A stretch of 64,000 bases of DNA from assembly GCA_041666265.1 (NCBI GenBank), contig JBAYHH010000001.1:8056-72055 (forward strand), given 5' to 3'. Positions within the stretch are counted from its first letter, which is position 1. Every line of letters begins with the position of its first letter. Below are positions 649 through 55,406 of the stretch, piece after piece. A model generated the notes under the pieces. It was given only the letters and a program-made list of their open reading frames with translations, made no database searches and had not been told where the DNA came from. The translations under genes were made by a program, and so were the position numbers. This DNA is from Candidatus Magasanikiibacteriota bacterium (GTDB lineage: Bacteria > Patescibacteriota > Patescibacteriia > Magasanikbacterales > GWA2-37-8).

Positions 649-1200
649 ATGGGTAATAACAGGCGGGCGGCGGTATTCATTGACGGAAGTAATTTTTACT
701 TCAAGATGAAATCGTTGGGGATAAAAAATTTACGAAAGTACGGTTATAATGCTTTGTGTAATGAATTGGCAGGCGAAAGAGAATTGGTGGCTATTGGATA
801 TTATGTCGGAGTGGTTAGAGCGGCGTTTAACGATGCCAAAGGACAGATGTTGCGTTTGGCGCAAAGGAATTTATTTAATCACCTGCGTGATCAGAAAGTA
901 ATTGTCCATAAAGGATATTTGATGAAAAACGACGGTGTTTATCACGAAAAAGGCGTGGATGTGAAAATTGCGACGGATTTACTCGTGGGCGCGTATGAAG
1001 ATTTGTATGATGACGCGATTGTGATTTCGTCGGACACGGATTTGTTGCCGGCGATGCAGAAAGTAAAAGAAAAAGGCAAAAATGTGGAGTATGTCGGTTT
1101 TGGACACCAACCCTCGCTGGCGCTTCAAACCGCCGCCACGCGTTCGCGGTTGCTGTTGATTGAGGAGTTGGAGAAGTTTGTGGATAAAAGTGAAAAATAA
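649..1200 (+). CDS. NYN-domain (LabA-like) protein
   Basis: N-terminal AVFIDGSNFY motif and the DTDLLPA acidic cluster are typical of NYN/LabA ribonuclease-like domains. Confidence 0.65.
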   Translation: MGNNRRAAVFIDGSNFYFKMKSLGIKNLRKYGYNALCNELAGERELVAIGYYVGVVRAAFNDAKGQMLRLAQRNLFNHLRDQKVIVHKGYLMKNDGVYHEKGVDVKIATDLLVGAYEDLYDDAIVISSDTDLLPAMQKVKEKGKNVEYVGFGHQPSLALQTAATRSRLLLIEELEKFVDKSEK

Positions 1201-1201
1201 T

Positions 1202-1612
1202 ATGAAAATCGAATCAGCAAAAGAATTTATCAATCGTAGAAGTAAACACTTTCAGGATGTTTTAGATAAATACAAAAAAACCAAAAAGGACAATTTATTA
1301 AAATGGCTTCCTGACATAAACAGAAAGGGTCGTTATGGTTTTATAAGAGAGGCGTGGACTTTAATGCCACAGTTTAATACAAAAGAAAAGATATTTATTA
1401 TAGAAAGGTTTCGGCGGGTTAAAATAAAGCGCCCAATTACTCATAAAAAATTGAAAATTGGCGAAATTGAATACCGATTTGGTTACTATATGGTCGGCAA
1501 AAATGGAAATAAAATTAACAAGTGGACATGGGGCGAGTCGTGCCCAATCATTCCTCGTGAAGATTTGGAAAAATTACTAAAAAAAGCTAAAAAAGAAAAA
1601 ACTATTTTGTAA
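1202..1612 (+). CDS. hypothetical lysine-rich protein
   Basis: ORF 1160..1612; ATG at 1202 avoids overlap with the previous gene. Very AT-rich and Lys-rich; no recognisable domain. Confidence 0.4.
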   Translation: MKIESAKEFINRRSKHFQDVLDKYKKTKKDNLLKWLPDINRKGRYGFIREAWTLMPQFNTKEKIFIIERFRRVKIKRPITHKKLKIGEIEYRFGYYMVGKNGNKINKWTWGESCPIIPREDLEKLLKKAKKEKTIL

Positions 1613-3778: not shown

Positions 3779-4198
3779 ATGAGTGCTTATATTGAGCGTT
3801 TTAATGTTGAAACAGAATGGTTTAGAGGGCAGATGGGGAAATTAAAGGAAAAATTAGGGTCTGCCGATAAGACCTTGGCCAAAATTGATGTTGATACTTT
3901 GACTCATGATGCGTTAGAGTATTGGACGGATTTTTTAGCGATATTAAGATTTTCTGAAAGAGATGATTTTGGCCAACCGGAATGGATAAACGGGTTGAAC
4001 AGAAAAGAGAAAGTTCTGTTTGATAAAATCGTCAAAGACGATACGGGTACGCCGGATGCGCCTTTTATGAATTGGTTAAGAAATTTATTAGCTCCCATTT
4101 CTGGTTATTTAGATTTGATTAAGCATGCCCCAAATAAAGGATCGGAAGAAAAATTGTTGGCAACAATAAAAACATTGTCCGAGAGATTGGATGTGTAA
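3779..4198 (+). CDS. hypothetical protein
   Basis: 139-aa ORF between dnaK and dnaJ. Not GrpE-like. No recognisable motif. Confidence 0.45.
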   Translation: MSAYIERFNVETEWFRGQMGKLKEKLGSADKTLAKIDVDTLTHDALEYWTDFLAILRFSERDDFGQPEWINGLNRKEKVLFDKIVKDDTGTPDAPFMNWLRNLLAPISGYLDLIKHAPNKGSEEKLLATIKTLSERLDV

Positions 4199-16133: not shown

Positions 16134-16646
16134 TTAAAATTGTAAAGTTTTTTTGACTTCCTTCAATATAATCAAATCCCGTTTTTGAATAAAACTACCT
16201 TCGTAATTCGCTGGTTCATCTGACGCCAATATGCTTATAGCTTTATTTAAAGTCACCCAGATTATTTTAAATCCATCGCTTAATTCTTTTTTAGTAAAAT
16301 TAGGCTGACCTTTAGAAATAATATTTCCAGAATAACAGAACGATGTTTGTTTGAGGTTAAACTGCGATCGGTATTCAATGATTTTGCCTAATTCTTGCAG
16401 TGCATCAATTTTACAACCAACTTCTTCCATCGATTCTCTTTTTAGAGCATTAATTTTTGATTCATGTTTTTTAATACCCCCCCCTGGCAATTTGTGATAA
16501 TTATATCTTGAAACAAACAAAAGCGGTATCAAATTATTATCAAATAATACCGCTCTTGCGGCTTTGCGGACATTCATCTTTGGCATGTTCTTATTTCTAT
16601 CTTTGTCACTAATCTCGGATAATAATTTCATAAAATTTCGAATCAA
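16134..16646 (-). CDS. NUDIX hydrolase
   Basis: Nudix box GGGIKKHESKINALKRESMEEVGCKI. Confidence 0.75.
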   Translation of the reverse strand: MIRNFMKLLSEISDKDRNKNMPKMNVRKAARAVLFDNNLIPLLFVSRYNYHKLPGGGIKKHESKINALKRESMEEVGCKIDALQELGKIIEYRSQFNLKQTSFCYSGNIISKGQPNFTKKELSDGFKIIWVTLNKAISILASDEPANYEGSFIQKRDLIILKEVKKTLQF

Positions 16647-38414: not shown

Positions 38415-39404
38415 ATGGATATGATCAAAAAAGCCATATTGACCGGCGGGGGGCGCGCCACGCGCTTGCGGCCGATCACCAATACAATCAATAAACACCT
38501 GATTCCGTTGGCTAATAAGCCGATGATTTTTCATGCTATCGAAAAAGTGGCTCGGGCCGGGGTTACTGAGATTTTTATCAATACCAATCCAGGTGAAACC
38601 GAATTACAAAAAATAATCGGTAATGGCGATCGCTTCGGGGTGAAAATATCATTTTTTGAGCAAGTGGGCGGACCGCAGGGGATCGCTCATGTCGTCAAGC
38701 TCGCGCAAAAATTCATCGGCGATGATCCGTTCATGTTTTATTTATCCGATAATATTATTTTGGCCGAGCTAAATAAGCTCGTGGACAAATTTACCACTGG
38801 TAATTTCGACTGTCTGCTCGCGCTGTCGCAAGTAAAAGACCCGGAACGGTTTGGTGTGCCGATTTTCAATGCCAAGGGCGAACTCATCGAGGTGCAAGAA
38901 AAACCGACTAACCCGCCCAATAATTTCGCCGTCACCGGTATATATTTGTATGGCCCGAAATTATTTTTTGAAGCTTTTGATCATATTGCGAAATCTGCGC
39001 GCGGCGAATACGAAATTTCCGATATCCATTCGTATTTTTTGAAGACCGGTCGTAAGGTGGGTCACGAAGAAATCACCGGCTGGTGGAAAGATACCGGCAA
39101 AGTCGAGGATCTGATTTTGGCCAATAAACTTTTGATGGATTTGTGTGGGATAAAATTCGAGATTGGACAAAATGTGAAGCGGATCGGCAGTGTGAAGATT
39201 GTCGAGCCGGTATGCGTGGGCGATGATTGCGTTTTAGAAAATTGCGCGATCGGTCCATATACGGCGATCGGAAAAAACAGCGTAATAAAAAATACGCGCT
39301 TATCGAACGCGATCGTATTTGAAGAATGCATCGTTGAATCCCCGGTGGAAATTGACCAAATAGTCATTAGTCGCGACTCGACGATGAGTGCGAAAATTGT
39401 CTAA
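38415..39404 (+). CDS. sugar-phosphate nucleotidyltransferase with C-terminal left-handed beta-helix
   Basis: AILTGGGRATRLRPITNTINKHLIPLANKPMIF N-terminus (G1P nucleotidyltransferase signature). Hexapeptide repeats C-terminally. Confidence 0.85.
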   Translation: MDMIKKAILTGGGRATRLRPITNTINKHLIPLANKPMIFHAIEKVARAGVTEIFINTNPGETELQKIIGNGDRFGVKISFFEQVGGPQGIAHVVKLAQKFIGDDPFMFYLSDNIILAELNKLVDKFTTGNFDCLLALSQVKDPERFGVPIFNAKGELIEVQEKPTNPPNNFAVTGIYLYGPKLFFEAFDHIAKSARGEYEISDIHSYFLKTGRKVGHEEITGWWKDTGKVEDLILANKLLMDLCGIKFEIGQNVKRIGSVKIVEPVCVGDDCVLENCAIGPYTAIGKNSVIKNTRLSNAIVFEECIVESPVEIDQIVISRDSTMSAKIV

Positions 39405-39414
39405 TATTATTGTT

Positions 39415-39520
39415 GAAGCCGCACAGTCCGATAATCTTTTCGCTTTCCTCGCGCGCGAGCGCTCAGGGATGGTCCTGCGGGACCATAACCCGCTCAAAGA
39501 ATATCAGACTGCGCGGCTTC
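39415..39520 (+). repeat. conserved structured intergenic element, copy 3
   Basis: Outer stem GAAGCCGCACAGTCCGATA / TATCAGACTGCGCGGCTTC. Core has CTCGCGCGCGAG and ATGGTCC-TGCG-GGACCAT. The right arm overlaps the stop codon of the convergent GT4 gene. Confidence 0.7.
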
Positions 39521-40613
39521 TTAGCTTGTATATTTCCTCTCGCACCTTGCGTGCGAATTCGGCTTCGGTAAATTTGCGCGCGGTGGCGTAGCAGTTTTGT
39601 TCCATGGCGAGCGCTTTGGCCGGTGTCAGCTCGTCTACAGCCTGAATCAAATCATTTTCGGTAGGATCGGCGGGCAACATCACCCCGTTTTTTTGATCCT
39701 CAATGATTTCCAGCAGTCCACCCTCGGCCACGCCGATCACCGGCTTGCCCGCGGTCATTGATTCGACCGGGCTCATGCCAAAATCTTCTCGCACCGGAAT
39801 ATATATAGTGGCCAAGCATTTCCCGAGATATTGTAATAGCTCGTCATCGCTAATCCAGCCGACGATTTTGATATTGTCGTGCCCCTCGGCCATTTTTTGA
39901 ATTTTTTGCAGCTCCGGTCCGCCCGATGCTATGATCAGTTTTTTGTCTGGCATTTGCGTGAACGCTTGCGCGATGAGATCGATGCGCTTGACCGAGTAGA
40001 GGCGCGCCCAAGAAAAAAAATAATCACCCTGACTTAGATTCTTGAAAGGCAAAGTATCACATGGTGGATAGACGACAATAGATTCGAGTCCTAAAAATTT
40101 TTTGATGCGCGCTTGGGTGTTTTTGGAGTTGGTAATGATTTTGTCGAAATGTTTGGATAGCGTTCGAAAGCGCCAGCGATTAAAGCCGGCAAACGGCACA
40201 AACAATATTTTCTTCCACCAGCTATATGAGCGTAATTTTTCGGAGTAACAGTCAAACAAATGACGGGGCGGGGTGTGCATGTAGGCGATATTTTTGGCGT
40301 GGCGCGCGCGTAGCAGGGCGGTGAGGCAATCGCCACTATAGATGACGGTGTCGTAATTTTTGAGAAAACCGGTTTTAAGTAAAAATGATAATTGGACTTG
40401 AAGATAACGAAAGCCCGGGACGCGCGACCAAGATTTTTCGCGATATAGTTCAATCACTCGGCCGGAAATTTGACCGCGCGGGTCAAAAGCGTCTTTGGCG
40501 ATAAAAGCCGTAGCAATATCCGCGTTTAAAATTTTGGCCATACTAATGACCAGGCGTTCGCCTCCGCCTTTGTACAAAAAATAGTCGTGCAGGATAATAA
40601 TCTTATTTGGCAT
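39504..40613 (-). CDS. glycosyltransferase family 4 (GT-B fold)
   Basis: EDFGMSPVESMTAGKPVIGVAEGG is the conserved GT4 C-terminal motif. Confidence 0.85.
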   Translation of the reverse strand: MPNKIIILHDYFLYKGGGERLVISMAKILNADIATAFIAKDAFDPRGQISGRVIELYREKSWSRVPGFRYLQVQLSFLLKTGFLKNYDTVIYSGDCLTALLRARHAKNIAYMHTPPRHLFDCYSEKLRSYSWWKKILFVPFAGFNRWRFRTLSKHFDKIITNSKNTQARIKKFLGLESIVVYPPCDTLPFKNLSQGDYFFSWARLYSVKRIDLIAQAFTQMPDKKLIIASGGPELQKIQKMAEGHDNIKIVGWISDDELLQYLGKCLATIYIPVREDFGMSPVESMTAGKPVIGVAEGGLLEIIEDQKNGVMLPADPTENDLIQAVDELTPAKALAMEQNCYATARKFTEAEFARKVREEIYKLRSRAV

Positions 40614-40646
40614 AATTTAATTATTTGTGTGATAATCGTATTATAT

Positions 40647-40686
40647 ACAAAACAACGCTATGTTACAAGCGTTGTTTTGTTGGTCG
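40647..40686 (+). repeat. direct repeat A (attL/attR-like; partial tRNA-Pro 3' end plus downstream hairpin)
   Basis: ACAAAACAACGCTATGTTACAAGCGTTGTTTTGTTGGTCG, identical to 46115..46154. Confidence 0.9.
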
Positions 40687-40741
40687 AACATCCTAAACGA
40701 TGTTAGAACTTTTTTTGAAAAAAATTATTAAGGGCTATTGT

Positions 40742-40830
40742 GTAGGGACTTCGCCCCTACAACCCCTGCCTACCGGTAGGCAGGCCACGAAAATGGGGCG
40801 GGCAAAAAGGCGCCGCCGTTCTCATTTTTA
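40742..40830 (+). promoter_or_regulatory. cluster of three GC-rich hairpins at the island left end (possible attP remnant, structured leader or terminator cluster)
   Basis: GTAGGG-ACTTCGC-CCCTAC (40742-40760). Perfect 20-bp palindrome CCTGCCTACCGGTAGGCAGG (40765-40784). GGCGG-GCAAAAAGGCG-CCGCC followed by a T-run. Confidence 0.4.
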
Positions 40831-40892
40831 CTCTTGTGGATAACTTTTGATATTTTTCTAAATTTATCTTATATTAGCCAAATTATCACTAC

Positions 40893-40921
40893 TTGACATA
40901 GACCAAATAGTCATATAATAT
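40893..40921 (+). promoter_or_regulatory. candidate promoter of the lexA-like / R-M operon
   Basis: TTGACA at 40893-40898 with TATAAT/TAATAT at 40913-40921, 8-16 nt upstream of ATG 40929. Confidence 0.45.
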
Positions 40922-40928
40922 AGAATAT

Positions 40929-41576
40929 ATGGCTAAAACTATCACCAAAAGACAACTTGATGCACTAAATTTGATATATCAGAATACCAAGAGCTCTGGT
41001 TTTCCGCCTAGTATGGCAGAAATGCGCGACGCACTTAGTGTAGCATCAAATCAATCAATAATCAACCTATTGAAGGCTTTGGAGGAAAAAGGTTGTATAA
41101 AACGCGAAGAAGGGCTTGCGCGTGGATTAAAAATTTTACCAAAAGGATTCAGTGTCCTCGGCGTTGACCCGATAGTTCCGGTCGTAGGGCAGAGTTCGTG
41201 CGGTCCGTTTATTGAGGCCACGCAAGAAATTGGCAACTGGACTGTGTTGCCGGGCATAACCAACGAAGTACAAGAATCGCAGGACAAAATTTTTGCCATT
41301 CAGGTGTGTGGCGATAGTATGATTAACGCCGGCATTTATGATGGGGATATGTTATTGGTAAAACAGACACGCGAATTTAAAAATGGTGATATTGTAGTCG
41401 CTCGTAGCGATGACGGCACCACCGTTAAAAGATTCGTTGCAGAAAATAAACGCGCTTATCTAAAGCCGGAAAATCCGGCCTACAAAAATATTCCAATTTT
41501 TGAAGAAACATATTTTGATGGCAAAGTAATTGCCAATTTAAGTACTTTAAAAAGAATGTATGAACCAAAAAATTAA
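40929..41576 (+). CDS. lexA: LexA-type repressor (winged-HTH + S24 peptidase)
   Basis: N-terminus collinear with the LexA DNA-binding domain (LTKRQLDALNLIYQNTKSSGFPPSMAEMRDALSV...LLKALEEKGCIKR). S24 catalytic Ser (VCGDSMINAGIYDGDMLLV) and Lys (TTVKRF). The putative cleavage site is Cys-Gly (VGQSSCGPF), as in UmuD. Confidence 0.85.
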   Translation: MAKTITKRQLDALNLIYQNTKSSGFPPSMAEMRDALSVASNQSIINLLKALEEKGCIKREEGLARGLKILPKGFSVLGVDPIVPVVGQSSCGPFIEATQEIGNWTVLPGITNEVQESQDKIFAIQVCGDSMINAGIYDGDMLLVKQTREFKNGDIVVARSDDGTTVKRFVAENKRAYLKPENPAYKNIPIFEETYFDGKVIANLSTLKRMYEPKN

Positions 41577-43488
41577 CAGCGCGGTGCTAAATAAAATTTT
41601 TCACGATTCCGGCGCGCAATACGGCCTTAAAGAATTTGAAAATGTCAAACCGGTGGAGGTTTTGGATATTTTTGAGAAAGAAAAAGGCAAATTTTATATT
41701 AAATGTCTCAAGCGCGACAAAGATATTTTATTGTTTAGCAACGAAAAGAATTTATCCAAGCCCGAGGAAGTTATTCGTCAATTATGGTTATTTAAATTGA
41801 CCAAATATTATAATTACCCGCTTGACCGGATTGATTTGGAAAAAGATATTCGTTTTGGACATGAGATTCACGCTAAAGCGGCGGATATCATTATTTATCG
41901 TGAAGATAAAGAAACTCCGCTTATAATCATTGAAACCAAAAATCCGGCGGTAGAAAAGGGTTTAGATCAATTAAAAACCTATATCAATTCCGAAGGCGCG
42001 CCTATCGGCGTGTGGAGCAATGGCGTGGAAAAAGTCGTTTTGTACCGCCCTTATCCGCGCGAATTCCAAACTTTACGCGATTTACCACGCGTAGATCAAA
42101 CAATTGACGATGTCTTGGAGGAAAAATTAACCCTTGACGATTTACACAAAGATTATGATTTGGTAAAAATTCTCAAAATTTTAGAGGAACTTGTTTTGGC
42201 CAGCGCGGGTGTAGATTCGTTTAATGAAATTTTTAAACTCATTTACGCCAAGTTATTTGACGAAAAAGAGGCGCGCAAACGAAAAGATAATGAATTGTAT
42301 TTCCGACAGTCCAAAGATCCAAAAATTACTCTTGATGTTATTAATAAACTTTTTCAGAGCGCCTGCCAAGAGTGGCCAGGGATATTTAGTAGTTATGAAA
42401 AAATAGAACTTACGCCCAATCACCTCGCTGTTTGTGTGGATGAATTTTCAAAAATAAGATTATTGGACGCTAATTTGGAAGTAATTGATGCCGCCTTTGA
42501 ATATTTATTACCTGATGTCGCCAAGGGCAAACGCGGGCAATATTTCACTCCGCGCCATGTGATAGATATGGCGGTAAAAATGCTCAATCCCAAGGACGGT
42601 GAATATATTATTGATCCGGCATGTGGGAGCGGTGGATTTCTTATTCACGCCATGCGTTATGTTTGGAACAACAACTTAAAACACGCTGACAAACAAGCCA
42701 AAACAGATTATGCCCGCAAATATATCTATGGAATTGATTTTGATGATAAACCGGTAAAAATCGCCCGCGCCATGATGCTTATTGCTGGTGACGGTAAATC
42801 ACACATCTTGAAATTGAATTCGCTTAACACCAAAGAGTGGCAGGGTGATGAAAGCGAAAAAGAACGCGCGCGCGCCGAATTGCGCGATCGATTACACAAA
42901 TTTGATGATTACGACAAAGACAAAAATAATAAAGATAACTTTAAATATTTTGACTTTGATATTTTATTATCAAACCCACCCTTTGCTGGCGAGATTCACG
43001 AAACCCCACTACTCAAAGAATACGAACTGGCAAAAAACGACAAAGGCAAGTTGCGTAATAAAATGGAGCGACACATTTTGTTTATTGAACGCTCGCTTGA
43101 TTTGGTAAAACCAGGTGGGCGTATGGCGATTGTTTTACCGCAGGGCGTGTTTAATAATAGCAACATGGAATATGTGCGCGATTACTTATTGGACAAAGCA
43201 CGTATTTTGGCAGTCGTTGGATTAGAAGTAAACACATTCAAACCGCACACCGGCACCAAGACCAGTGTAATATTTTTACAAAAATGGGGCGCAAAAGAAA
43301 ACAAACCAAAGGATTATCCTATTTTTATGGCCGTTTCCAAAAAATCAGGCAAGGATAATTCCGGCGATTATGTTTATCGCAAGGACAAAGAAGGCAGTTT
43401 GATGTTTGATGAGCAGGGGAAAAAAATATTGGAGCATGATTTGGATGAAATTGCGGAGGAGTATTTGAAATTTACAGAAAAAATATGA
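41560..43488 (+). CDS. BcgI-A-like bifunctional restriction endonuclease / N6-adenine DNA methyltransferase
   Basis: N-terminal HSDR_N-type PD-(D/E)xK motif (AADIIIY...PLIIIETK...LDQLKTY). Gamma-class N6-MTase motifs (DPACGSGGFL, NPPF). 642 aa, comparable to BcgI A subunit. Start overlaps the lexA-like gene by 17 nt. Confidence 0.8.
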   Translation: MNQKINSAVLNKIFHDSGAQYGLKEFENVKPVEVLDIFEKEKGKFYIKCLKRDKDILLFSNEKNLSKPEEVIRQLWLFKLTKYYNYPLDRIDLEKDIRFGHEIHAKAADIIIYREDKETPLIIIETKNPAVEKGLDQLKTYINSEGAPIGVWSNGVEKVVLYRPYPREFQTLRDLPRVDQTIDDVLEEKLTLDDLHKDYDLVKILKILEELVLASAGVDSFNEIFKLIYAKLFDEKEARKRKDNELYFRQSKDPKITLDVINKLFQSACQEWPGIFSSYEKIELTPNHLAVCVDEFSKIRLLDANLEVIDAAFEYLLPDVAKGKRGQYFTPRHVIDMAVKMLNPKDGEYIIDPACGSGGFLIHAMRYVWNNNLKHADKQAKTDYARKYIYGIDFDDKPVKIARAMMLIAGDGKSHILKLNSLNTKEWQGDESEKERARAELRDRLHKFDDYDKDKNNKDNFKYFDFDILLSNPPFAGEIHETPLLKEYELAKNDKGKLRNKMERHILFIERSLDLVKPGGRMAIVLPQGVFNNSNMEYVRDYLLDKARILAVVGLEVNTFKPHTGTKTSVIFLQKWGAKENKPKDYPIFMAVSKKSGKDNSGDYVYRKDKEGSLMFDEQGKKILEHDLDEIAEEYLKFTEKI

Positions 43489-44342
43489 CATTAGCAGATT
43501 TATTAACCGAAAGGATTAATGAGACCGGATTTCCTTTCCAGGAGGAATGCTACCAATTTATTAAAGATACAAAAAATTTTGTTACAAAAGAATATCCATA
43601 TTCGTTTATCGGAGTTGATGGTTCGGTAGATATTTTGACTTTAAAGATTCCGCCCCTTGATGATTTTGGCGATTCTTTTTGGCCAATCATGTCTATTGAA
43701 TGTAAAAAAAGTAAACCCGGTATTAAAAATTGGTGCTTTATTAAGACGGATAGAGGTGGTTATGGAACAAAACCATTATTTGTGGTTTCAATAGTAAGCG
43801 CGGAAAGTGAAGCAAAATTATCATTTTCATCTGAATTATACTCATTTGATAGATTGAAATTTTTTAACGACAAAATGGTAACAATTGATGAAGTTGTAAA
43901 TTTTGGGTTTGAAAGCAACATACTTGCGGAATCTCTTAATAGAAATCAGGAAGAAAAAATTTATAAGTCGCTACTTCAAAGCGTAAGCGGTATTACTTAT
44001 GTTGAGAAAAAAAAGTTTCCCAATATACCGGAGCTGCGGCTGAATGAAGACAAAATTAATGGATTAAGTCGTAGGACACTTCCGCCGTCATACCCGACAA
44101 TTATTTTTATACCAATAGTGTTGACCACATCGGACTTATATGTGGCTAATTTTAATCCTAATAATGTTAAAGACGGTGAAATTGATAATGGAAGTGTCAC
44201 CTGGGTTCAGAAGAATTGGGTTTTTTATGATTTTGGTTTGCCTGATTATCTGCAACAAGATGAACTGGTTTACAGAGGCGTATTTATTGTCAACAATAAA
44301 CATTTTCCGGTATTTTATAATACATTGATGCCATCATTTTAA
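43485..44342 (+). CDS. hypothetical protein, possible PD-(D/E)xK nuclease-fold accessory protein
   Basis: 285 aa, ATGA-overlapped with the MTase gene. Candidate motif GVDGSVDILTL...IMSIECKKSK. No other homology recognisable by eye. Confidence 0.45.
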   Translation: MTLADLLTERINETGFPFQEECYQFIKDTKNFVTKEYPYSFIGVDGSVDILTLKIPPLDDFGDSFWPIMSIECKKSKPGIKNWCFIKTDRGGYGTKPLFVVSIVSAESEAKLSFSSELYSFDRLKFFNDKMVTIDEVVNFGFESNILAESLNRNQEEKIYKSLLQSVSGITYVEKKKFPNIPELRLNEDKINGLSRRTLPPSYPTIIFIPIVLTTSDLYVANFNPNNVKDGEIDNGSVTWVQKNWVFYDFGLPDYLQQDELVYRGVFIVNNKHFPVFYNTLMPSF

Positions 44343-44345
44343 TTT

Positions 44346-45722
44346 ATGGTTTTTTCAATAATACAAAAGTCCCAACTTGAGGGCGCACAACGATTAGATG
44401 CTGAATATTATCAGCCAGAGTATTTAAAATTGGAGAGTAATTTGGGAAAAAATAATTTATCCCTAAAATTTTTTAGTGATATTTTAGAAAAGGAGAATTC
44501 TTTGACCGGAGGTGCCACTCCATTGGGCGCAGACTACCCAAGTAGTGGAGTTAGATTTTTGCGTGTACAAAATATTATGCAAGGATTTTTAGATTTTGAT
44601 GATGTTGTATTTATCTCTCAGCAAACAAATGATAATCAGTTAAAACGATCTCAATTAGTGGACAGTGATGTGTTATTAACCATCACTGGTGTTTCTTATG
44701 GCAAATCGGCGGTGTATAAAAAATCTTGTGGCCCATGTAATATTAATCAACATTCTGTTAGAATGCGTTTTATTGAAAAAATTTTACCTGAATATGTTGC
44801 TACTTTTTTAAATTCAAAATATGGTAGATTTCAATCGGATAGAAAAATTACAGGTGACACCCGACCAGCGCTAGCATACGAAGAAATTAAAAATTATTTA
44901 ATTCCAATATTTGACATTGAGCAACAAAAAAATATTCAAAAAATTTATACTAAAGCGAATAATTTATTGGATGAATCAGAGAATATATATAAAAACGCTT
45001 TAGATATTTTTTTAAGCGAAACAAATGTAAATTGGTTTAGTGAGAATAAAATTTATTATTCCGTTGTTAATTTATTCGAAGTACAAACCGTCAATCGTTT
45101 TGACGCAGAATATTTTAATTCCCCGTGCAATAAAATTCTAACGCAGATTATTAAAGGCAAAACCGCCAAATTAGGCGACCTGGCGGACATGACAAAAGGT
45201 GTTGAGCCTGGGGCCGACGCGTATCAAGATGAAGGAAAATTATTTATCCGCGTTAGTAGTATTTCCAAAGATGGCATAATAGATAAAGACCAAAAATATT
45301 TGAGTGATGATTTGTATAATGAATATAAAAAAGATTACCAACCACAGGTTGGTGATGTACTTTTGACAAAAGATGCTTCGATAGGCGTTGCTTGTGTGGT
45401 ACGAGAGTCGGTTGAAGGAATTGTGGCTGGTGGAGTTTTACGATTAAAATTAAAGGAAAAGATGAATCCGGAATATTTGGCTTTAGTGTTAAATTCTATC
45501 GTTGGTCAAATGCAGGCCAAACGAGACGCCGGTGGCTCTATTATCGCTCACTGGAAACCAGAACAAATAAAAAATTTAGTAGTTCCAATTTTGCCTGCCG
45601 CAACTCAAGAAAAAATCGCGGGCTTGATCGTTAAATCGCACGAAGCCCGTAAAAAAGCGAAGAGGTTACTTGAAGAGGCAAAATTAAAGGTCGAGGAAAT
45701 GATAGAAAAAGGAGGTAGATAA
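44346..45722 (+). CDS. restriction-modification specificity subunit (HsdS/BcgI-B-like) with two target-recognition domains
   Basis: Duplicated TRD framing motifs (RLDAEYYQPEY and RFDAEYFNSP). Conserved central and C-terminal helices. Confidence 0.85.
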   Translation: MVFSIIQKSQLEGAQRLDAEYYQPEYLKLESNLGKNNLSLKFFSDILEKENSLTGGATPLGADYPSSGVRFLRVQNIMQGFLDFDDVVFISQQTNDNQLKRSQLVDSDVLLTITGVSYGKSAVYKKSCGPCNINQHSVRMRFIEKILPEYVATFLNSKYGRFQSDRKITGDTRPALAYEEIKNYLIPIFDIEQQKNIQKIYTKANNLLDESENIYKNALDIFLSETNVNWFSENKIYYSVVNLFEVQTVNRFDAEYFNSPCNKILTQIIKGKTAKLGDLADMTKGVEPGADAYQDEGKLFIRVSSISKDGIIDKDQKYLSDDLYNEYKKDYQPQVGDVLLTKDASIGVACVVRESVEGIVAGGVLRLKLKEKMNPEYLALVLNSIVGQMQAKRDAGGSIIAHWKPEQIKNLVVPILPAATQEKIAGLIVKSHEARKKAKRLLEEAKLKVEEMIEKGGR

Positions 45723-46114
45723 TAATAATAATTTTATGTCGTGGATAAAAGTAAAGGATCCAAATTTTTTCCCAAGGTTACCGAGCTTACCGCGATTACC
45801 TCGGTTGCCAAGTTTGCCGAAAATACCAAAAATCCCATCAATCAGACCGATAAAGCCAATAGCACCATTGGGTTATAAGTATGTTTGGCGTGAACCCAAA
45901 TAATTTGAAGTAGGTAGAGCGAGCGGGATGGAGGAGTGCCAAGATCCGAGGAGGTTGGTAATTACGAAAGCCCAACCCAACCGCGACCGAAATAATTGTT
46001 TCCAAAACCTCGCTAAAAAGTGGGGTTTTGTTTTCTAAAATTGGGAGCACCATTTGCCCGCCCGATTAATAATTTTTTTAAAAAAGGTTCGAGCTTCGTT
46101 CAGTAATTACGACA

Positions 46115-46154
46115 ACAAAACAACGCTATGTTACAAGCGTTGTTTTGTTGGTCG
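46115..46154 (+). repeat. direct repeat B (overlaps the 3' terminus of tRNA-Pro)
   Basis: Identical 40-mer. 46149..46154 are the tRNA 3' end (CGACCA on the minus strand). Confidence 0.9.
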
Positions 46155-46225
46155 GGGTGCCGGGACTTGAACCCGGAATCTCGTGAACCCGAATCACGCG
46201 CCTTAGCCAATTGGGCCACACCCCG
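46149..46225 (-). tRNA. tRNA-Pro (anticodon CGG), CCA encoded
   Basis: Manual cloverleaf. Acceptor CGGGGTG/CACCCCG. U8. D-arm GCCC/GGC with loop containing GG. Anticodon stem CGTGA/TCACG with loop TTCGGGT. T-arm CCGGG-TTCAAGT-CCCGG. Discriminator A then CCA. Confidence 0.85.
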
Positions 46226-46261
46226 TAGTGAGATGGATTGTATCACCCTATCGCGAAAAAA

Positions 46262-46885
46262 TCAAGGGCGCAGGGTGTGTATGGCGCGATCAAGCGCCAG
46301 GTGCATCTGTATTTCAATAGCGCGATTGGTTTTTTGAGCCAGTGGCAGATAATAGCGATTGGCTTCGCCAAACCAATGCGTAATTTTATTGTATTTGGGA
46401 AAAAGTAAAAATAAATCGCACCAACAGCGCATATTATCGAGCATGTCAGCGCATTTTACTATTCGCGTCTTTTTGTCAGCGCGCATAATAAAATTATATC
46501 TGCGCCCCTTGCTGATTTTTTTGGATAGCTCGCATTCATTGTCATGGCGCGGGCGAGTCAGATTTTTTACCAACCGAGCGATTTCTCGGTCAAATTCTTT
46601 TTCAATTGTTGGTAATTTTATATCGGTATCTTCGACTACATCATGCAAAAGAGCGGCGGCGATCATGGCGCAATTCTTACTTTTGAATTCGTAAATCAAT
46701 GAATTGGCCACGCGTAGAGGATGGATAAAATATTGGTCGCCTTCGTAGCGTCGCTGGTTTATATGAGCTGTTTGCGCCATCAAAAACGCGCGCGTCAAGA
46801 TGTCGCGCCCGCGGGCCGATTGTTTTTTTACATATCGATGAAACAGTTTCTCGTGATATTTTATGTTTCTGAAGCGTGATTTCAT
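46262..46885 (-). CDS. HD-domain (p)ppGpp hydrolase-like protein (RelA/SpoT HD family)
   Basis: QYFIHPLRVANSL...AALLHDVVEDTD conserved HD motif of SpoT-type hydrolases. About 207 aa; start uncertain. Confidence 0.7.
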   Translation of the reverse strand: MKSRFRNIKYHEKLFHRYVKKQSARGRDILTRAFLMAQTAHINQRRYEGDQYFIHPLRVANSLIYEFKSKNCAMIAAALLHDVVEDTDIKLPTIEKEFDREIARLVKNLTRPRHDNECELSKKISKGRRYNFIMRADKKTRIVKCADMLDNMRCWCDLFLLFPKYNKITHWFGEANRYYLPLAQKTNRAIEIQMHLALDRAIHTLRP

Positions 46886-53283: not shown

Positions 53284-55014
53284 ATGAATTTATCCATGCT
53301 CAAGACAAAAAAATTTTGGATCATCACCGCAGTGGTTTTGGTAGTCGCTTGGATCGGTTACGGCCAGTACAAAAAATCTACCGCTCTGCCTGATTATGAT
53401 ACGGTCACGGTGGCGCGCGGGGACATCGCTCAAACCGTGGAGGCGACCGGCAAGATTCAATCCGCTAACGACTTGCAGATGCGTTTTGAAACCGCTGGTA
53501 CTTTGGGTGAAATCAAAGTTCAAGAAGGCGATGTGGTCAAGACGGGTCAAATGCTCGCTTCTTTGCGCGCGAGCGAATTATCCGCCGCCGTTGCTCAAGC
53601 CCAAGCTAATCTAAATCAAAAAATCGCCGGCGCCAATGATCAAGAACGCGCGTATTACAAAGCGCTCGCCGATCAAGCGCTCGCCGATCTCAATAAAACT
53701 CGCTCGGACACCGCCAATTCCATTTCTTCTTATGAAGCCGGAGTGGAAACCGCGAAAAACAACATGAAGCTGGCCGAAGGCGGAGAGGATAGTCGGATTG
53801 TCAATCAAGAATACGATGACGCGGTGGCGGTTTTGCAGGCGACCCTATCCAAGCTTGATGACGGAATGACTCAAGCCGACAATATCTTGGGTATTGACAA
53901 TACACTCGCTAACGACACCTTTGAAGCCAATTTATCTCTCTTAAATTCCAGTAAATTGAATGTGGCCAATTCTGCGTATTACTCCGCTCGCACCGCGCGC
54001 GATAGCGCTCGCGCTGCTATCATCGCGTTGAACACCATTAGTGTTCATTCTGCCGTTGACAGCGCCGTTTTATGGGCTGAGGACGCGCTGTCCAAAACCA
54101 GTATATTGCTTTCCGGCGTGGCCGATGTGCTCGCATCCACTCCGCCGTTGGGTGGTTTGACGCAAACAGAATTGGATGCCAAAAAAACGATTATTGCCGC
54201 GATGCGCACGACGATTTCGACCCAATATACGACTATGATCAGTGAGTCGCAAGCGCTTGCCGACGCGAAAAATAGCTATAATACTTATTTGGTGGCGTAC
54301 AATAAGGCGGTCAATGATTTGAATAACGCCAAGAGTACCGCGACGAGTGTGGTGGCGATCAAGGAGGCGATGTATAATCAAGCGCTCGCGAATTATGAAA
54401 ATAAAATTTTACCTTCACGCGAAGTCGACCTCGCACCGCTACGCGCCGCTCTCTCACAAGCGCAAGCCAATTACGGCAAGGCGGTTTTACGCGCGCCGAT
54501 TGACGGCGTGATTTCAAAAGTAAACAAAAAGGTGGGTGAGCTGGTATCGGCGGCCGATATCGCGATCGAAATGATCACTCCGCATTTTGAAGTGGAAGTG
54601 GATATTCCCGAAACCGATGTGTCCAAATTAAAATTGGGCGACGCGGTGGTGATTACTTTGGATGCGTTTGGCGATGACACCAAATTTAGCGGCCAAGTGA
54701 TCAGTATTGATCCGGCCAGCACCAACATCCAAGATGTAGTGTATTACAAAGTTAAAGTTTCACTCGACGACACTGATAAGCCGATCAAAACCGGCATGAC
54801 TGCCAATGTGACGGTGGCGACGGAAAAACGCGCGGGAGTTTTGTATGTCCCCAGTCGCGCCGTCCGTACCAATGGTGAAAAATATGTCAAAATTTTGACC
54901 GGCAAAACGGTCACTGATGTGCCGGTAACTCTTGGACTCAAAGCCGACGATGGTAAGGTGGAGATTGTGAGCGGAGTGAATGAGGGTGACATCGTGATTG
55001 TTGGGACGAAGTAA
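53284..55014 (+). CDS. efflux pump periplasmic adaptor (HlyD/MacA-like membrane fusion protein)
   Basis: N-terminal TM. Long coiled-coil A/Q/N-rich hairpin. C-terminal beta-barrel/MPD region. Confidence 0.8.
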   Translation: MNLSMLKTKKFWIITAVVLVVAWIGYGQYKKSTALPDYDTVTVARGDIAQTVEATGKIQSANDLQMRFETAGTLGEIKVQEGDVVKTGQMLASLRASELSAAVAQAQANLNQKIAGANDQERAYYKALADQALADLNKTRSDTANSISSYEAGVETAKNNMKLAEGGEDSRIVNQEYDDAVAVLQATLSKLDDGMTQADNILGIDNTLANDTFEANLSLLNSSKLNVANSAYYSARTARDSARAAIIALNTISVHSAVDSAVLWAEDALSKTSILLSGVADVLASTPPLGGLTQTELDAKKTIIAAMRTTISTQYTTMISESQALADAKNSYNTYLVAYNKAVNDLNNAKSTATSVVAIKEAMYNQALANYENKILPSREVDLAPLRAALSQAQANYGKAVLRAPIDGVISKVNKKVGELVSAADIAIEMITPHFEVEVDIPETDVSKLKLGDAVVITLDAFGDDTKFSGQVISIDPASTNIQDVVYYKVKVSLDDTDKPIKTGMTANVTVATEKRAGVLYVPSRAVRTNGEKYVKILTGKTVTDVPVTLGLKADDGKVEIVSGVNEGDIVIVGTK

Positions 55015-55019
55015 TCCTT

Positions 55020-55406
55020 TAAATTGTCATCCCCGCGCAGGCGGGGATCCAGAGTATTATTTTATGTTAGGGAGGAATTATAATGTTTACATTTTAGCTA
55101 GTAAAAGAAACGGTACATTATATATTGGTGTCACAAATAATTTGATTCGCAGAATCTATGAGCACAAAAATAATTTGGTTGATGGATTTACTAAAAATTA
55201 CAGCATTCACAATTTAGTGTATTATGAAAGTTACAATGAGGTCGAGAATGCTATTACGAGAGAAAAGCAACTAAAAAAATGGGATAGAAAATGGAAAATA
55301 AGAATTATTGAAGAAATGAATCCACACTGGCGTGATTTGTATGAGGAATTAAATCCAATTTATTGATTGGCGACTGGATCCCCGCCTGCGCGGGGATGAC
55401 AATTTA
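55020..55406 (+). mobile_element. miniature TIR-flanked cassette carrying a GIY-YIG nuclease gene, inserted between macA-like and macB-like genes
   Basis: Perfect 31-bp terminal inverted repeats: 55020..55050 (TAAATTGTCATCCCCGCGCAGGCGGGGATCC) and 55376..55406 (exact reverse complement). Each TIR is internally palindromic (ATCCCCGC..GCGGGGAT). Confidence 0.75.
55064..55366 (+). CDS. GIY-YIG nuclease family protein (small, YhbQ/Uri-like)
   Basis: VYILASKRNGTLYIGVTNNLIRRIYEHK plus conserved E/N downstream is the GIY-YIG motif. The longer ORF from 54998 reads through the left inverted repeat and is considered an artefact. Confidence 0.8.
   Translation: MLGRNYNVYILASKRNGTLYIGVTNNLIRRIYEHKNNLVDGFTKNYSIHNLVYYESYNEVENAITREKQLKKWDRKWKIRIIEEMNPHWRDLYEELNPIY

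Follow-up and report, generated by a model that had tools for sequence, protein, structure and literature searches.

The Candidate Phyla Radiation (CPR, or Patescibacteria) makes up a large, uncultured share of bacterial diversity and is marked by tiny genomes and few CRISPR systems. In the usual view, restriction-modification (R-M) systems are expressed constitutively, and the only control over them comes from the C proteins that time their establishment. The C proteins of type II R-M operons are encoded by small, autoregulatory first genes, which often overlap the next gene and have an operator in their own promoter; they are XRE-type helix-turn-helix (HTH) activators/repressors with neither a protease domain nor a damage input. 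The proteobacterial lexA2-imuA-imuB-dnaE2 'mutagenesis cassettes', said to have been described by Abella et al. in 2004 and Erill et al. in 2006, reportedly carry lexA as the first cistron of a LexA-repressed and partly mobile operon. DNA-damage-responsive repressors have also been described 5' of swappable immune operons, namely CapH with CapP (bioRxiv 10.1101/2022.04.27.489752), the WYL-domain protein CapW/BrxR (PMC11662680), and CapK with CapS, the regulators of the last type lying beside R-M among other systems in an account that does not mention LexA (PMC13373217). Here we analyze a 64,000-nucleotide stretch of contig JBAYHH010000001.1 from a Candidatus Magasanikiibacteriota bacterium (hereafter the window), in which a lexA gene immediately precedes genes of R-M type. 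We consider it likely that this lexA is the autoregulated first cistron of a four-gene operon, followed by the genes for an RM-type subunit (M), a candidate nuclease (X) and a specificity subunit (S), and that it codes for a RecA-cleavable repressor of the R-M genes.

Like the C-protein operons, this locus opens with an apparently autoregulatory DNA-binding gene that overlaps the next one and has a putative operator in its own promoter; unlike them, its first gene is not a small XRE-type HTH controller, coding instead for LexA_DNA_bind and S24 domains, and XRE HTH_3 genes were found only in lexA-less, partly DPANN-labelled relatives of the M locus. With the lexA2 cassettes it shares the placement of lexA as first cistron of an operon predicted to be repressed by LexA, in a unit that may be partly mobile. 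However, the cargo here is R-M, not translesion polymerases, and the window lexA appears to represent the main LexA type of its lineage and not an obvious second paralog. As in the Cap systems, the gene for a repressor that would be inactivated by a DNA-damage or single-stranded DNA (ssDNA) signal stands immediately 5' of swappable defence genes, R-M included; but whereas the Cap regulators employ sensors of their own (a metallopeptidase, a WYL domain or a kinase) that are independent of RecA and LexA, here the canonical SOS repressor itself occupies that position, on the same predicted transcript as the defence genes. With canonical LexA (E. coli LexA and B. subtilis LexA/DinR) the window gene and protein share the two-domain architecture, the Ser-Lys dyad, the register of the cleavage loop and a palindrome, here a putative operator, in their own promoter. 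They differ from it in a P1 residue that is Cys instead of Ala and fixed in the clade, in a putative operator core of the form GAC-N6-GTC, in an apparently leaderless promoter with a conserved DnaA-box neighbor, and in the apparently co-cistronic R-M genes, seen at 0/67 sampled non-CPR lexA loci.

Judging from its domains and profile scores, the lexA product is a full, genuine LexA whose one atypical feature is the Cys at P1. The Pfam domain LexA_DNA_bind (PF01726) matches residues 3-66 with 58.1 bits (cut-off 23.7) and Peptidase_S24 (PF00717) residues 84-195 with 91.4 bits, while the whole protein scores above the equivalog cut-off of the NCBIfam model TIGR00498 'lexA' (153.6 bits vs 110.95) and is 100% identical to the annotated LexA of a Candidatus Magasanikbacteria metagenome-assembled genome (Patescibacteria/CPR). 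UmuD identity is ruled out by the DNA-binding domain and by a score of 68.5 bits with the UmuD model NF007621, under its cut-off of 110. We found no second LexA or S24 gene within the 64-kb window, and no PADLOC model matched the protein.

Alignment against three reference sequences (the LexA proteins of E. coli and B. subtilis, and UmuD of E. coli) places Cys91-Gly92 in the columns of E. coli LexA Ala84-Gly85, B. subtilis LexA Ala91-Gly92 and UmuD Cys24-Gly25, with S130 and K167 falling on E. coli S119 and K156. Both catalytic residues are invariant in the 120 best homologs, all patescibacterial, which at the cleavage site carry Cys-Gly in 53 cases, Ala-Gly in 66 and Thr-Gly in one. Cys-Gly is present in 45/45 homologs with at least 67% identity to the window LexA, and Ala-Gly is dominant under that level. 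Both dipeptides are given as scissile bonds of the LexA/UmuD protease family, UmuD being cleaved at Cys-Gly (PMC8565304, PMC10020695). Because the Cys-Gly dipeptide is fixed in the clade and lexA evolves under purifying selection (dN/dS ~0.07 vs its relatives), we regard it as a clade variant of LexA that is presumably functional, and not as a sign of relationship to UmuD. With the UmuD/MucA family the protein has in common the S24 fold, the Cys-Gly dipeptide and the GDSM...VKK/R context of the dyad, but UmuD is devoid of a DNA-binding domain and the resemblance amounts to one residue. Cys-Gly as a marker of R-M-linked LexAs is ruled out by 49 unique Ala-Gly LexAs that are equally R-M-linked; across these homologs it is a clade trait unrelated to the linkage. 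The original prediction, which had proposed a LexA-type winged HTH in place of an XRE/CI one, an S24 Ser (GDSM) and Lys (VKRF) dyad, and a Cys-Gly homologous to LexA Ala84-Gly85, agrees with these results on all three counts, the profile search having returned the LexA domain and no non-LexA HTH family. Its epithet 'UmuD-like' fits the P1 residue but not the protein.

The R-M genes are tightly packed behind lexA, with junctions of -17 nt (lexA-M), -4 nt (M-X) and +3 nt (X-S). The lexA stop codon occupies 41574-41576 and M starts at 41560, so the first overlap measures 17 nt; an overlap had been foreseen, and the 15 nt given for it came close. A + strand scan placed no terminator-like site in the stretch from lexA up to the final ~390 nt of S; apart from the probable operon end (Table 1), its sole match is at 45334-45356, inside S. 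This spacing, the lack of a terminator-like site from lexA to S, the terminator-like hairpin 3' of S, and the retention of the lexA-M junction in dozens of genomes support the earlier proposal that lexA is the first gene of, and co-expressed with, an R-M operon.

M joins an N-terminal PD-ExK nuclease-like domain (D109, E125, K127) to a gamma-class N6-adenine methyltransferase (NPPF at 472-475); all of these residues are invariant in 38 homologs, and the gene has a dN/dS of about 0.03. It matches the PADLOC MTase_I model PDLC03034 over its full length with 613 bits, and S matches Specificity_I with 170 bits. The best match of M among PDB sequences is the type IIB enzyme RM.BsaXI (2.8e-27, about 21% identity), and BsaXI is likewise the best fold match of the AlphaFold2 (AF2) model of M (pLDDT 70.9; 687 alignment columns, E 1e-21). 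X is variable cargo, being absent or replaced in related operons, and matched no PADLOC model. Pfam searches recovered no HsdR (a ResIII or helicase R gene) in the window operon or within 6-10 kb on either side of lexA-M in nine contexts, which rules out a classical type I system though HsdM/HsdS-type models match. MADS is ruled out by low scores (MAD2 323 bits vs 720, MAD5 149 vs 400) and by the lack of other mad genes. Overall, the unit resembles an RM+S enzyme of BcgI/BsaXI-like type, supplemented by a nuclease, and is predicted to have endonuclease activity. As in BsaXI and BcgI, a single chain would combine an N-terminal PD-ExK nuclease with a gamma-class N6-methyladenine (m6A) methyltransferase and work with a separate HsdS-like subunit bearing two target-recognition domains (TRDs); unlike in them, identity is only ~21%, PADLOC/REBASE-type models label the M family 'type I M', and there is the extra nuclease gene X. 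The methyltransferase postulated in the original prediction is R-M-like as stated there, but it resembles a type IIB RM subunit more than a simple type I HsdM.

The case for direct control rests on the promoter. We aligned the 100 nt 5' of lexA from 63 unique related loci and found a shared arrangement of a -35 element TTGAC(A), a palindrome, a -10 element TATAAT, and a start codon ~9-12 nt past the latter. The palindrome, GAC(T/C)A-AA-TAGTC, lies between the -35 and -10 elements in 50 unique lexA promoters, with the consensus (C/T)(C/T)GACTAAATAGTC(G/A)G. A 20-nt position weight matrix (PWM) built from the 50 sites (consensus AACAGACTAAATAGTCGGGT) locates the box 27-29 nt 5' of the ATG in 44 of them. 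When ~890 kb of CPR loci were scanned, comprising lexA and M neighborhoods but never recA or uvr loci, all matches of at least 15 bits except one were at lexA promoters. In the window the exact 12-mer GACCAAATAGTC occurs twice, vs 0.18 times expected by chance. The LexA box of Gram-positive bacteria is CGAAC-N4-GTTCG, and in our own comparison the 14-bp dyad CGACT-N4-AGTCG found here has the same length and outer bases. The most economical reading is that GACCAAATAGTC is an autoregulatory LexA operator at which bound LexA would occlude RNA polymerase. The search for a promoter palindrome that the original prediction had recommended reverses its own statement that no SOS-box-like palindrome could be made out there by eye, and the conserved putative operator lends support to its idea that LexA directly controls the R-M operon. 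Only 9 nt separate TATAAT from the ATG, implying that the lexA mRNA is leaderless or nearly so.

Table 1. Coordinates, strand and supporting evidence of features of the lexA-R-M locus (positions within the 64,000-nucleotide window)
Feature	Position	Strand	Evidence or remark
DnaA-box consensus nonamer TGTGGATAA (reverse complement of TTATCCACA)	40835..40843	-	5' of lexA promoter
-35 hexamer TTGACA of the lexA operon promoter	40893..40898	+	sequence, promoter scan; TTGAC kept in related loci
Putative LexA operator GACCAAATAGTC in promoter spacer	40901..40912	+	conserved palindrome; PWM site 40897-40916, 23.9 bits
-10 hexamer TATAAT, 9 nt 5' of ATG	40914..40919	+	sequence; same geometry in related loci
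lexA, 215 aa	40929..41576	+	winged HTH residues 3-66, S24 domain residues 84-195
Predicted scissile bond Cys91-Gly92 (codons)	41199..41204	+	alignment register
Catalytic Ser130 (GDSM) codon	41316..41318	+	alignment; 120/120 homologs
Catalytic Lys167 (VKRF) codon	41427..41429	+	alignment; 120/120 homologs
RM-type subunit M, 642 aa	41560..43488	+	HSDR_N_2 and N6_Mtase (Pfam)
X, 285 aa	43485..44342	+	stand-alone PD-(D/E)xK-fold nuclease candidate (restriction-endonuclease fold)
HsdS-like specificity subunit S, 458 aa, two TRDs	44346..45722	+	Methylase_S, two matched stretches (Pfam)
Terminator-like hairpin and T-run, probable operon end	46003..46040 (hairpin 46003-46030)	+	12-bp stem, then TTTTCT, 3' of S

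The linkage of lexA to R-M genes recurs widely in CPR genomes. Approached from LexA, all nine homolog look-ups (57-100% identity) showed lexA, M and S in this order on the same strand, in unrelated flanking contexts. Approached from M, lexA lies directly upstream in 55 of the 72 metagenome loci where at least 700 nt of sequence precede M, in a sample formed by the best 80 of at least 570 matches. The linkage is also present in Portnoybacteria and in a complete Beckwithbacteria genome, CP011210.1. In ~70 independent loci lexA always comes first, on the same strand as M, and the lexA-M junction nearly always falls between -31 and +33 nt, a few loci having gaps of 200-400 nt; in the window's own clade it is exactly -17 nt in seven of eight sampled loci, the eighth (L096) having a 62-nt gap. 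Four CPR loci without this M carry other R-M genes directly after lexA: a different N6_Mtase with Methylase_S (L015), a Cys-rich protein with an N6_N4_Mtase (L018), an Eco57I-type methyltransferase with a Tsp45I restriction enzyme (226 bits; L020, Saccharibacteria), and, in L022 (DATKZC010000014.1 7001-8437, Candidatus Paceibacterota), a single 478-aa open reading frame (ORF) comprising LexA_DNA_bind, Peptidase_S24 and N6_N4_Mtase domains and followed by an HNH endonuclease. This ORF is either a real LexA-methyltransferase fusion or the product of an assembly frameshift; no other such fusion was found among the 120 LexA homologs. The window-type operator recurs in L018, L020 and L022. Thus, as five R-M types occur behind one LexA family with its operator, it is lexA that stays constant and R-M that varies. 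No R-M genes follow lexA at five further sampled loci (L019, L023-L026). None of the 67 non-CPR control loci, obtained as lexA loci by a LexA-alignment profile search of genome contigs (mostly Firmicutes among the matches listed), matched these R-M proteins. The design, called unusual in the original prediction, is so relative to model bacteria but is common within the CPR. Full-text searches of the literature brought up no account linking LexA to R-M or methyltransferases in CPR; they did not cover Sanchez-Osuna et al. 2017 (Environ Microbiol 19:3465), on the SOS network of the Patescibacteria, so an earlier description is possible.

We propose that the sigma-70-type promoter would start transcription a few nt from the ATG and that a LexA dimer on GACCAAATAGTC in its spacer would block RNA polymerase, thereby keeping both LexA and the R-M proteins at low, self-limited levels. 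DNA damage or phage attack would give rise to ssDNA-RecA filaments that stimulate LexA to cleave itself at Cys91-Gly92 by means of Ser130 and Lys167. The operon would then be derepressed and its packed or overlapping downstream genes made together, yielding a BsaXI/BcgI-like bifunctional subunit, a two-TRD specificity subunit and an additional PD-(D/E)xK nuclease. The benefit of such SOS induction would be either inducible defence by restriction or extra protective methylation during repair, and the locus fits both.

Several observations weigh against this proposal. A crude signature scan recognized none of recA, uvrA, uvrB, dinB, ruvB, dnaE and recN in the window; the GACCAAATAGTC palindrome could in principle bind some other factor; and the -35 and -10 elements are spaced 15 nt apart if the latter is TATAAT, or 17 nt if it is TAATAT. 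The metagenome sample is skewed to close relatives of the window M, because only the best matches were taken, and the AF2 model of M is of moderate quality (pLDDT 70.9), with poor confidence at 128-171, the C-terminal part of the nuclease-like domain. Finally, the cassette may move between genomes instead of being a fixed chromosomal SOS gene, since the third-position GC content (GC3) of lexA and M lies under the window mean and their synonymous divergence is lower than that of their syntenic neighbors.

This last point bears on a different reading, which we consider unlikely, namely that lexA is the dedicated controller of a horizontally exchanged lexA-M-S defence cassette akin to the lexA2 cassettes, with a C-protein-like role and a regulon of about its own operon, and not a global SOS regulator. 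Relative to the syntenic locus L004, LexA is 92% and M 95% identical, vs 71% for PilT and 50-59% for other neighbors, and with a synonymous difference (pS) of 0.48 and 0.55, respectively, lexA and M diverge less than the flanking genes (0.72-0.74). GC3 is 0.37, 0.39, 0.28 and 0.27 for lexA, M, X and S, respectively, vs 0.51 +/- 0.08 for the other genes of the window, with a GC dip across 40600-45400. The lexA-M cassette occurs in unrelated flanking contexts and in the window adjoins a tRNA-Pro gene; operator matches are restricted to lexA promoters in the 890 kb; and M loci without lexA carry an XRE HTH gene and a RadC-N gene at the same position. On the other hand, the protein exceeds the LexA equivalog cut-off, and LexA identity drops with taxonomic distance (92% in Magasanikbacteria, 70% in Falkowbacteria, 59% in Portnoybacteria, 45% in Beckwithbacteria) in a manner fitting mainly vertical descent. 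Moreover, a single LexA family and operator stand at the head of five different R-M types, the nine lexA-M contexts showed neither integrase nor transposase, and the restriction of the regulon to its own operon depends on the operator scan that never covered recA or uvr loci. A prophage or viral origin is unsupported, with viral contigs holding only M relatives at no more than 44% identity and no lexA, and thus not the cassette.

M is more conserved than LexA across increasingly distant relatives (98 vs 92%, 90 vs 76%, 81 vs 59% and 57 vs 45% identity), whereas S reaches only 52-60% identity where the M proteins of the genomes compared are 95-98% identical, with an overall range of 30-60%. The genes between M and S vary as well: X in the window, none in L004 and L013, and NYN, DUF4145, PRiA4 or DUF3800 proteins elsewhere. 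We posit that lexA and M form a core under strong constraint, probably passed between related genomes, and that S and the cargo are replaced in the manner of defence loci. This pattern also speaks to the possibility, to which we assign little probability, that M and S are not a restriction system but an orphan methyltransferase with an epigenetic role linked to repair or replication, its nuclease-like domain being non-catalytic. The missing HsdR (none within 8-10 kb in any context), the extreme conservation of M (57-98% identity across CPR phyla at its low dN/dS), the DnaA-box consensus kept beside the promoter, and the L004 and L013 operons without a separate nuclease gene could all be so read. 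Nevertheless, the PD-ExK residues are invariant, the best sequence and fold match over the whole chain is the type IIB enzyme BsaXI, the hypervariability of S is expected of defence specificity and not of a conserved regulatory motif, and the cargo between M and S (X, NYN, DUF4145, DUF3800) is nuclease- or defence-associated. Slightly less probable still is that the region 3' of lexA is a passive insertion hotspot for R-M genes with promoters of their own and neither control by nor gain from LexA: the great variation of R-M type and cargo among genomes, the few loci with 200-400 nt gaps and weak promoter-like matches inside lexA (for example, 41530-41557) are compatible with it, but the near-universal tight junction, the terminator-free stretch between the lexA and S genes, the single ORF of L022 and the constant first, same-strand position of lexA are not what it predicts.

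The promoter of the lexA-headed operon also has a conserved neighbor. An exact DnaA nonamer lies within 150 nt 5' of lexA in 32 of the 63 unique CPR loci (42 if one mismatch is allowed), vs 0.0028 per 150 nt in the background. Its placement differs between groups: it adjoins the -35 element in loci of Microgenomates type, and in those of Parcubacteria type it is found 72-95 nt upstream, oppositely oriented. This suggests co-regulation of the lexA-R-M operon by DnaA, which would bind at these predicted boxes. Further exact DnaA-box nonamers are present in the window at 1179 and 16071.

Other elements were observed around the promoter. A second exact GACCAAATAGTC core (39354-39365; PWM 20.2 bits) lies within the 3' end of an NTP-transferase gene (38415..39404), 1.5 kb 5' of lexA, with no gene start downstream, and is not conserved in L004; an auxiliary role, a role in looping and mere chance are all possible. 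Two inverted repeats farther upstream, TCGAACATC/GATGTTAGA (40684-40707) and ACAAAACAACGCT/AGCGTTGTTTTGT (40647-40680), were dropped as SOS-box candidates since neither is conserved in related lexA promoters; the latter is a perfect 13-nt inverted repeat with an 8-nt loop, just 5' of a divergent glycosyltransferase gene (39504..40613, -). In the AT-rich divergent intergenic region, 40740-40830 contains GC-rich hairpins (TAGGGAC...CCCCTA, CCTGCCTACC/GGTAGGCAGG, and GGCGG...CCGCC with a T-run) with a predicted RNA fold of -40.8 kcal/mol (z = -2.0) and no Rfam match; the GCGCCGCCGTTCTCATTTTTACTCTTGTGGATAAC portion is common to L001 and L004. Parcubacteria-type loci (for example, L015, L097, L099 and L101) show a further conserved element, a palindrome TGGCTTA-N3-4-TAAGCCA followed by a T-rich stretch, between the DnaA box and the -35 element, ~30-70 nt 5' of lexA; it is degenerate in the window (~40866-40885) and could be a site for another factor or a weak hairpin. 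In two Saccharibacteria loci without R-M 3' of lexA (L025, L026), the promoter has no GAC-N6-GTC box and instead carries GTGAACGA(A/T)(C/T)GTATA between -35 and -10; part of the Saccharibacteria may use a different LexA operator.

Downstream of the window operon, a 55-aa proline-rich repeat ORF (PRLPSLPRLPRLPSLPKIPKIP...) at 45736-45903 separates S from the terminator. It is ruled out as a conserved operon family, the position being filled by unrelated small ORFs elsewhere; the sole related pair there is a zinc-ribbon-like one after S in L013 and L176. The tRNA-Pro gene (46149-46225) follows and is the only known RNA detected by Rfam in 40400-46400. Other low-GC ORFs of the window (1160-1612, 16134-16646, 54998-55366 and 3779-4198; GC 0.31-0.37 and GC3 0.28-0.36, vs window means of 0.46 and 0.51) may be further foreign or fast-evolving genes. 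Among related loci, 17 M loci have, in place of lexA, an XRE HTH_3 gene and a gene for a RadC N-terminal domain (UPF0758_N, 102 bits). The RadC-N protein, of ~105-110 aa and often accompanied by the XRE gene, lies directly 5' of M in twelve loci (L105, L108, L110, L112, L113, L116, L118, L120, L121, L125, L147, L151), and a ~390-aa or a NucS-like protein is sometimes encoded between these genes and M. Some close M homologs are labelled Pacearchaeota (DPANN archaea). In L174 (9710-12642) a lexA-M-...-X operon is followed by nrdR and nrdD (anaerobic ribonucleotide reductase), with ftsA-ftsZ on its 5' side, a neighborhood that may be relevant to the SOS network of the CPR.

The recurrence of lexA-headed R-M operons across many CPR bacteria suggests that anti-phage restriction in these organisms is wired to the DNA-damage alarm. 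More tentatively, as a broader view that we hold to be possible, much of the CPR would have recruited LexA as the built-in damage or infection sensor of R-M, with restriction an inducible and not a constitutive defence in organisms largely without CRISPR, an SOS regulon that perhaps extends little beyond this operon, at least five kinds of R-M docking behind lexA (one of them apparently fused to it), a leaderless promoter under the control of LexA and possibly DnaA, and a Cys-Gly clade in which the induction threshold might be tuned. If confirmed, the placement of the classical SOS repressor at the head of R-M operons would connect innate immunity directly with the oldest stress circuit known in bacteria. 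It would also supply a defined LexA operator for predicting CPR regulons, a natural Cys-Gly LexA for the study of cleavage-rate tuning, and, in the conserved DnaA-box/LexA-box promoter, a probe of the coupling of replication, damage and defence in the CPR.

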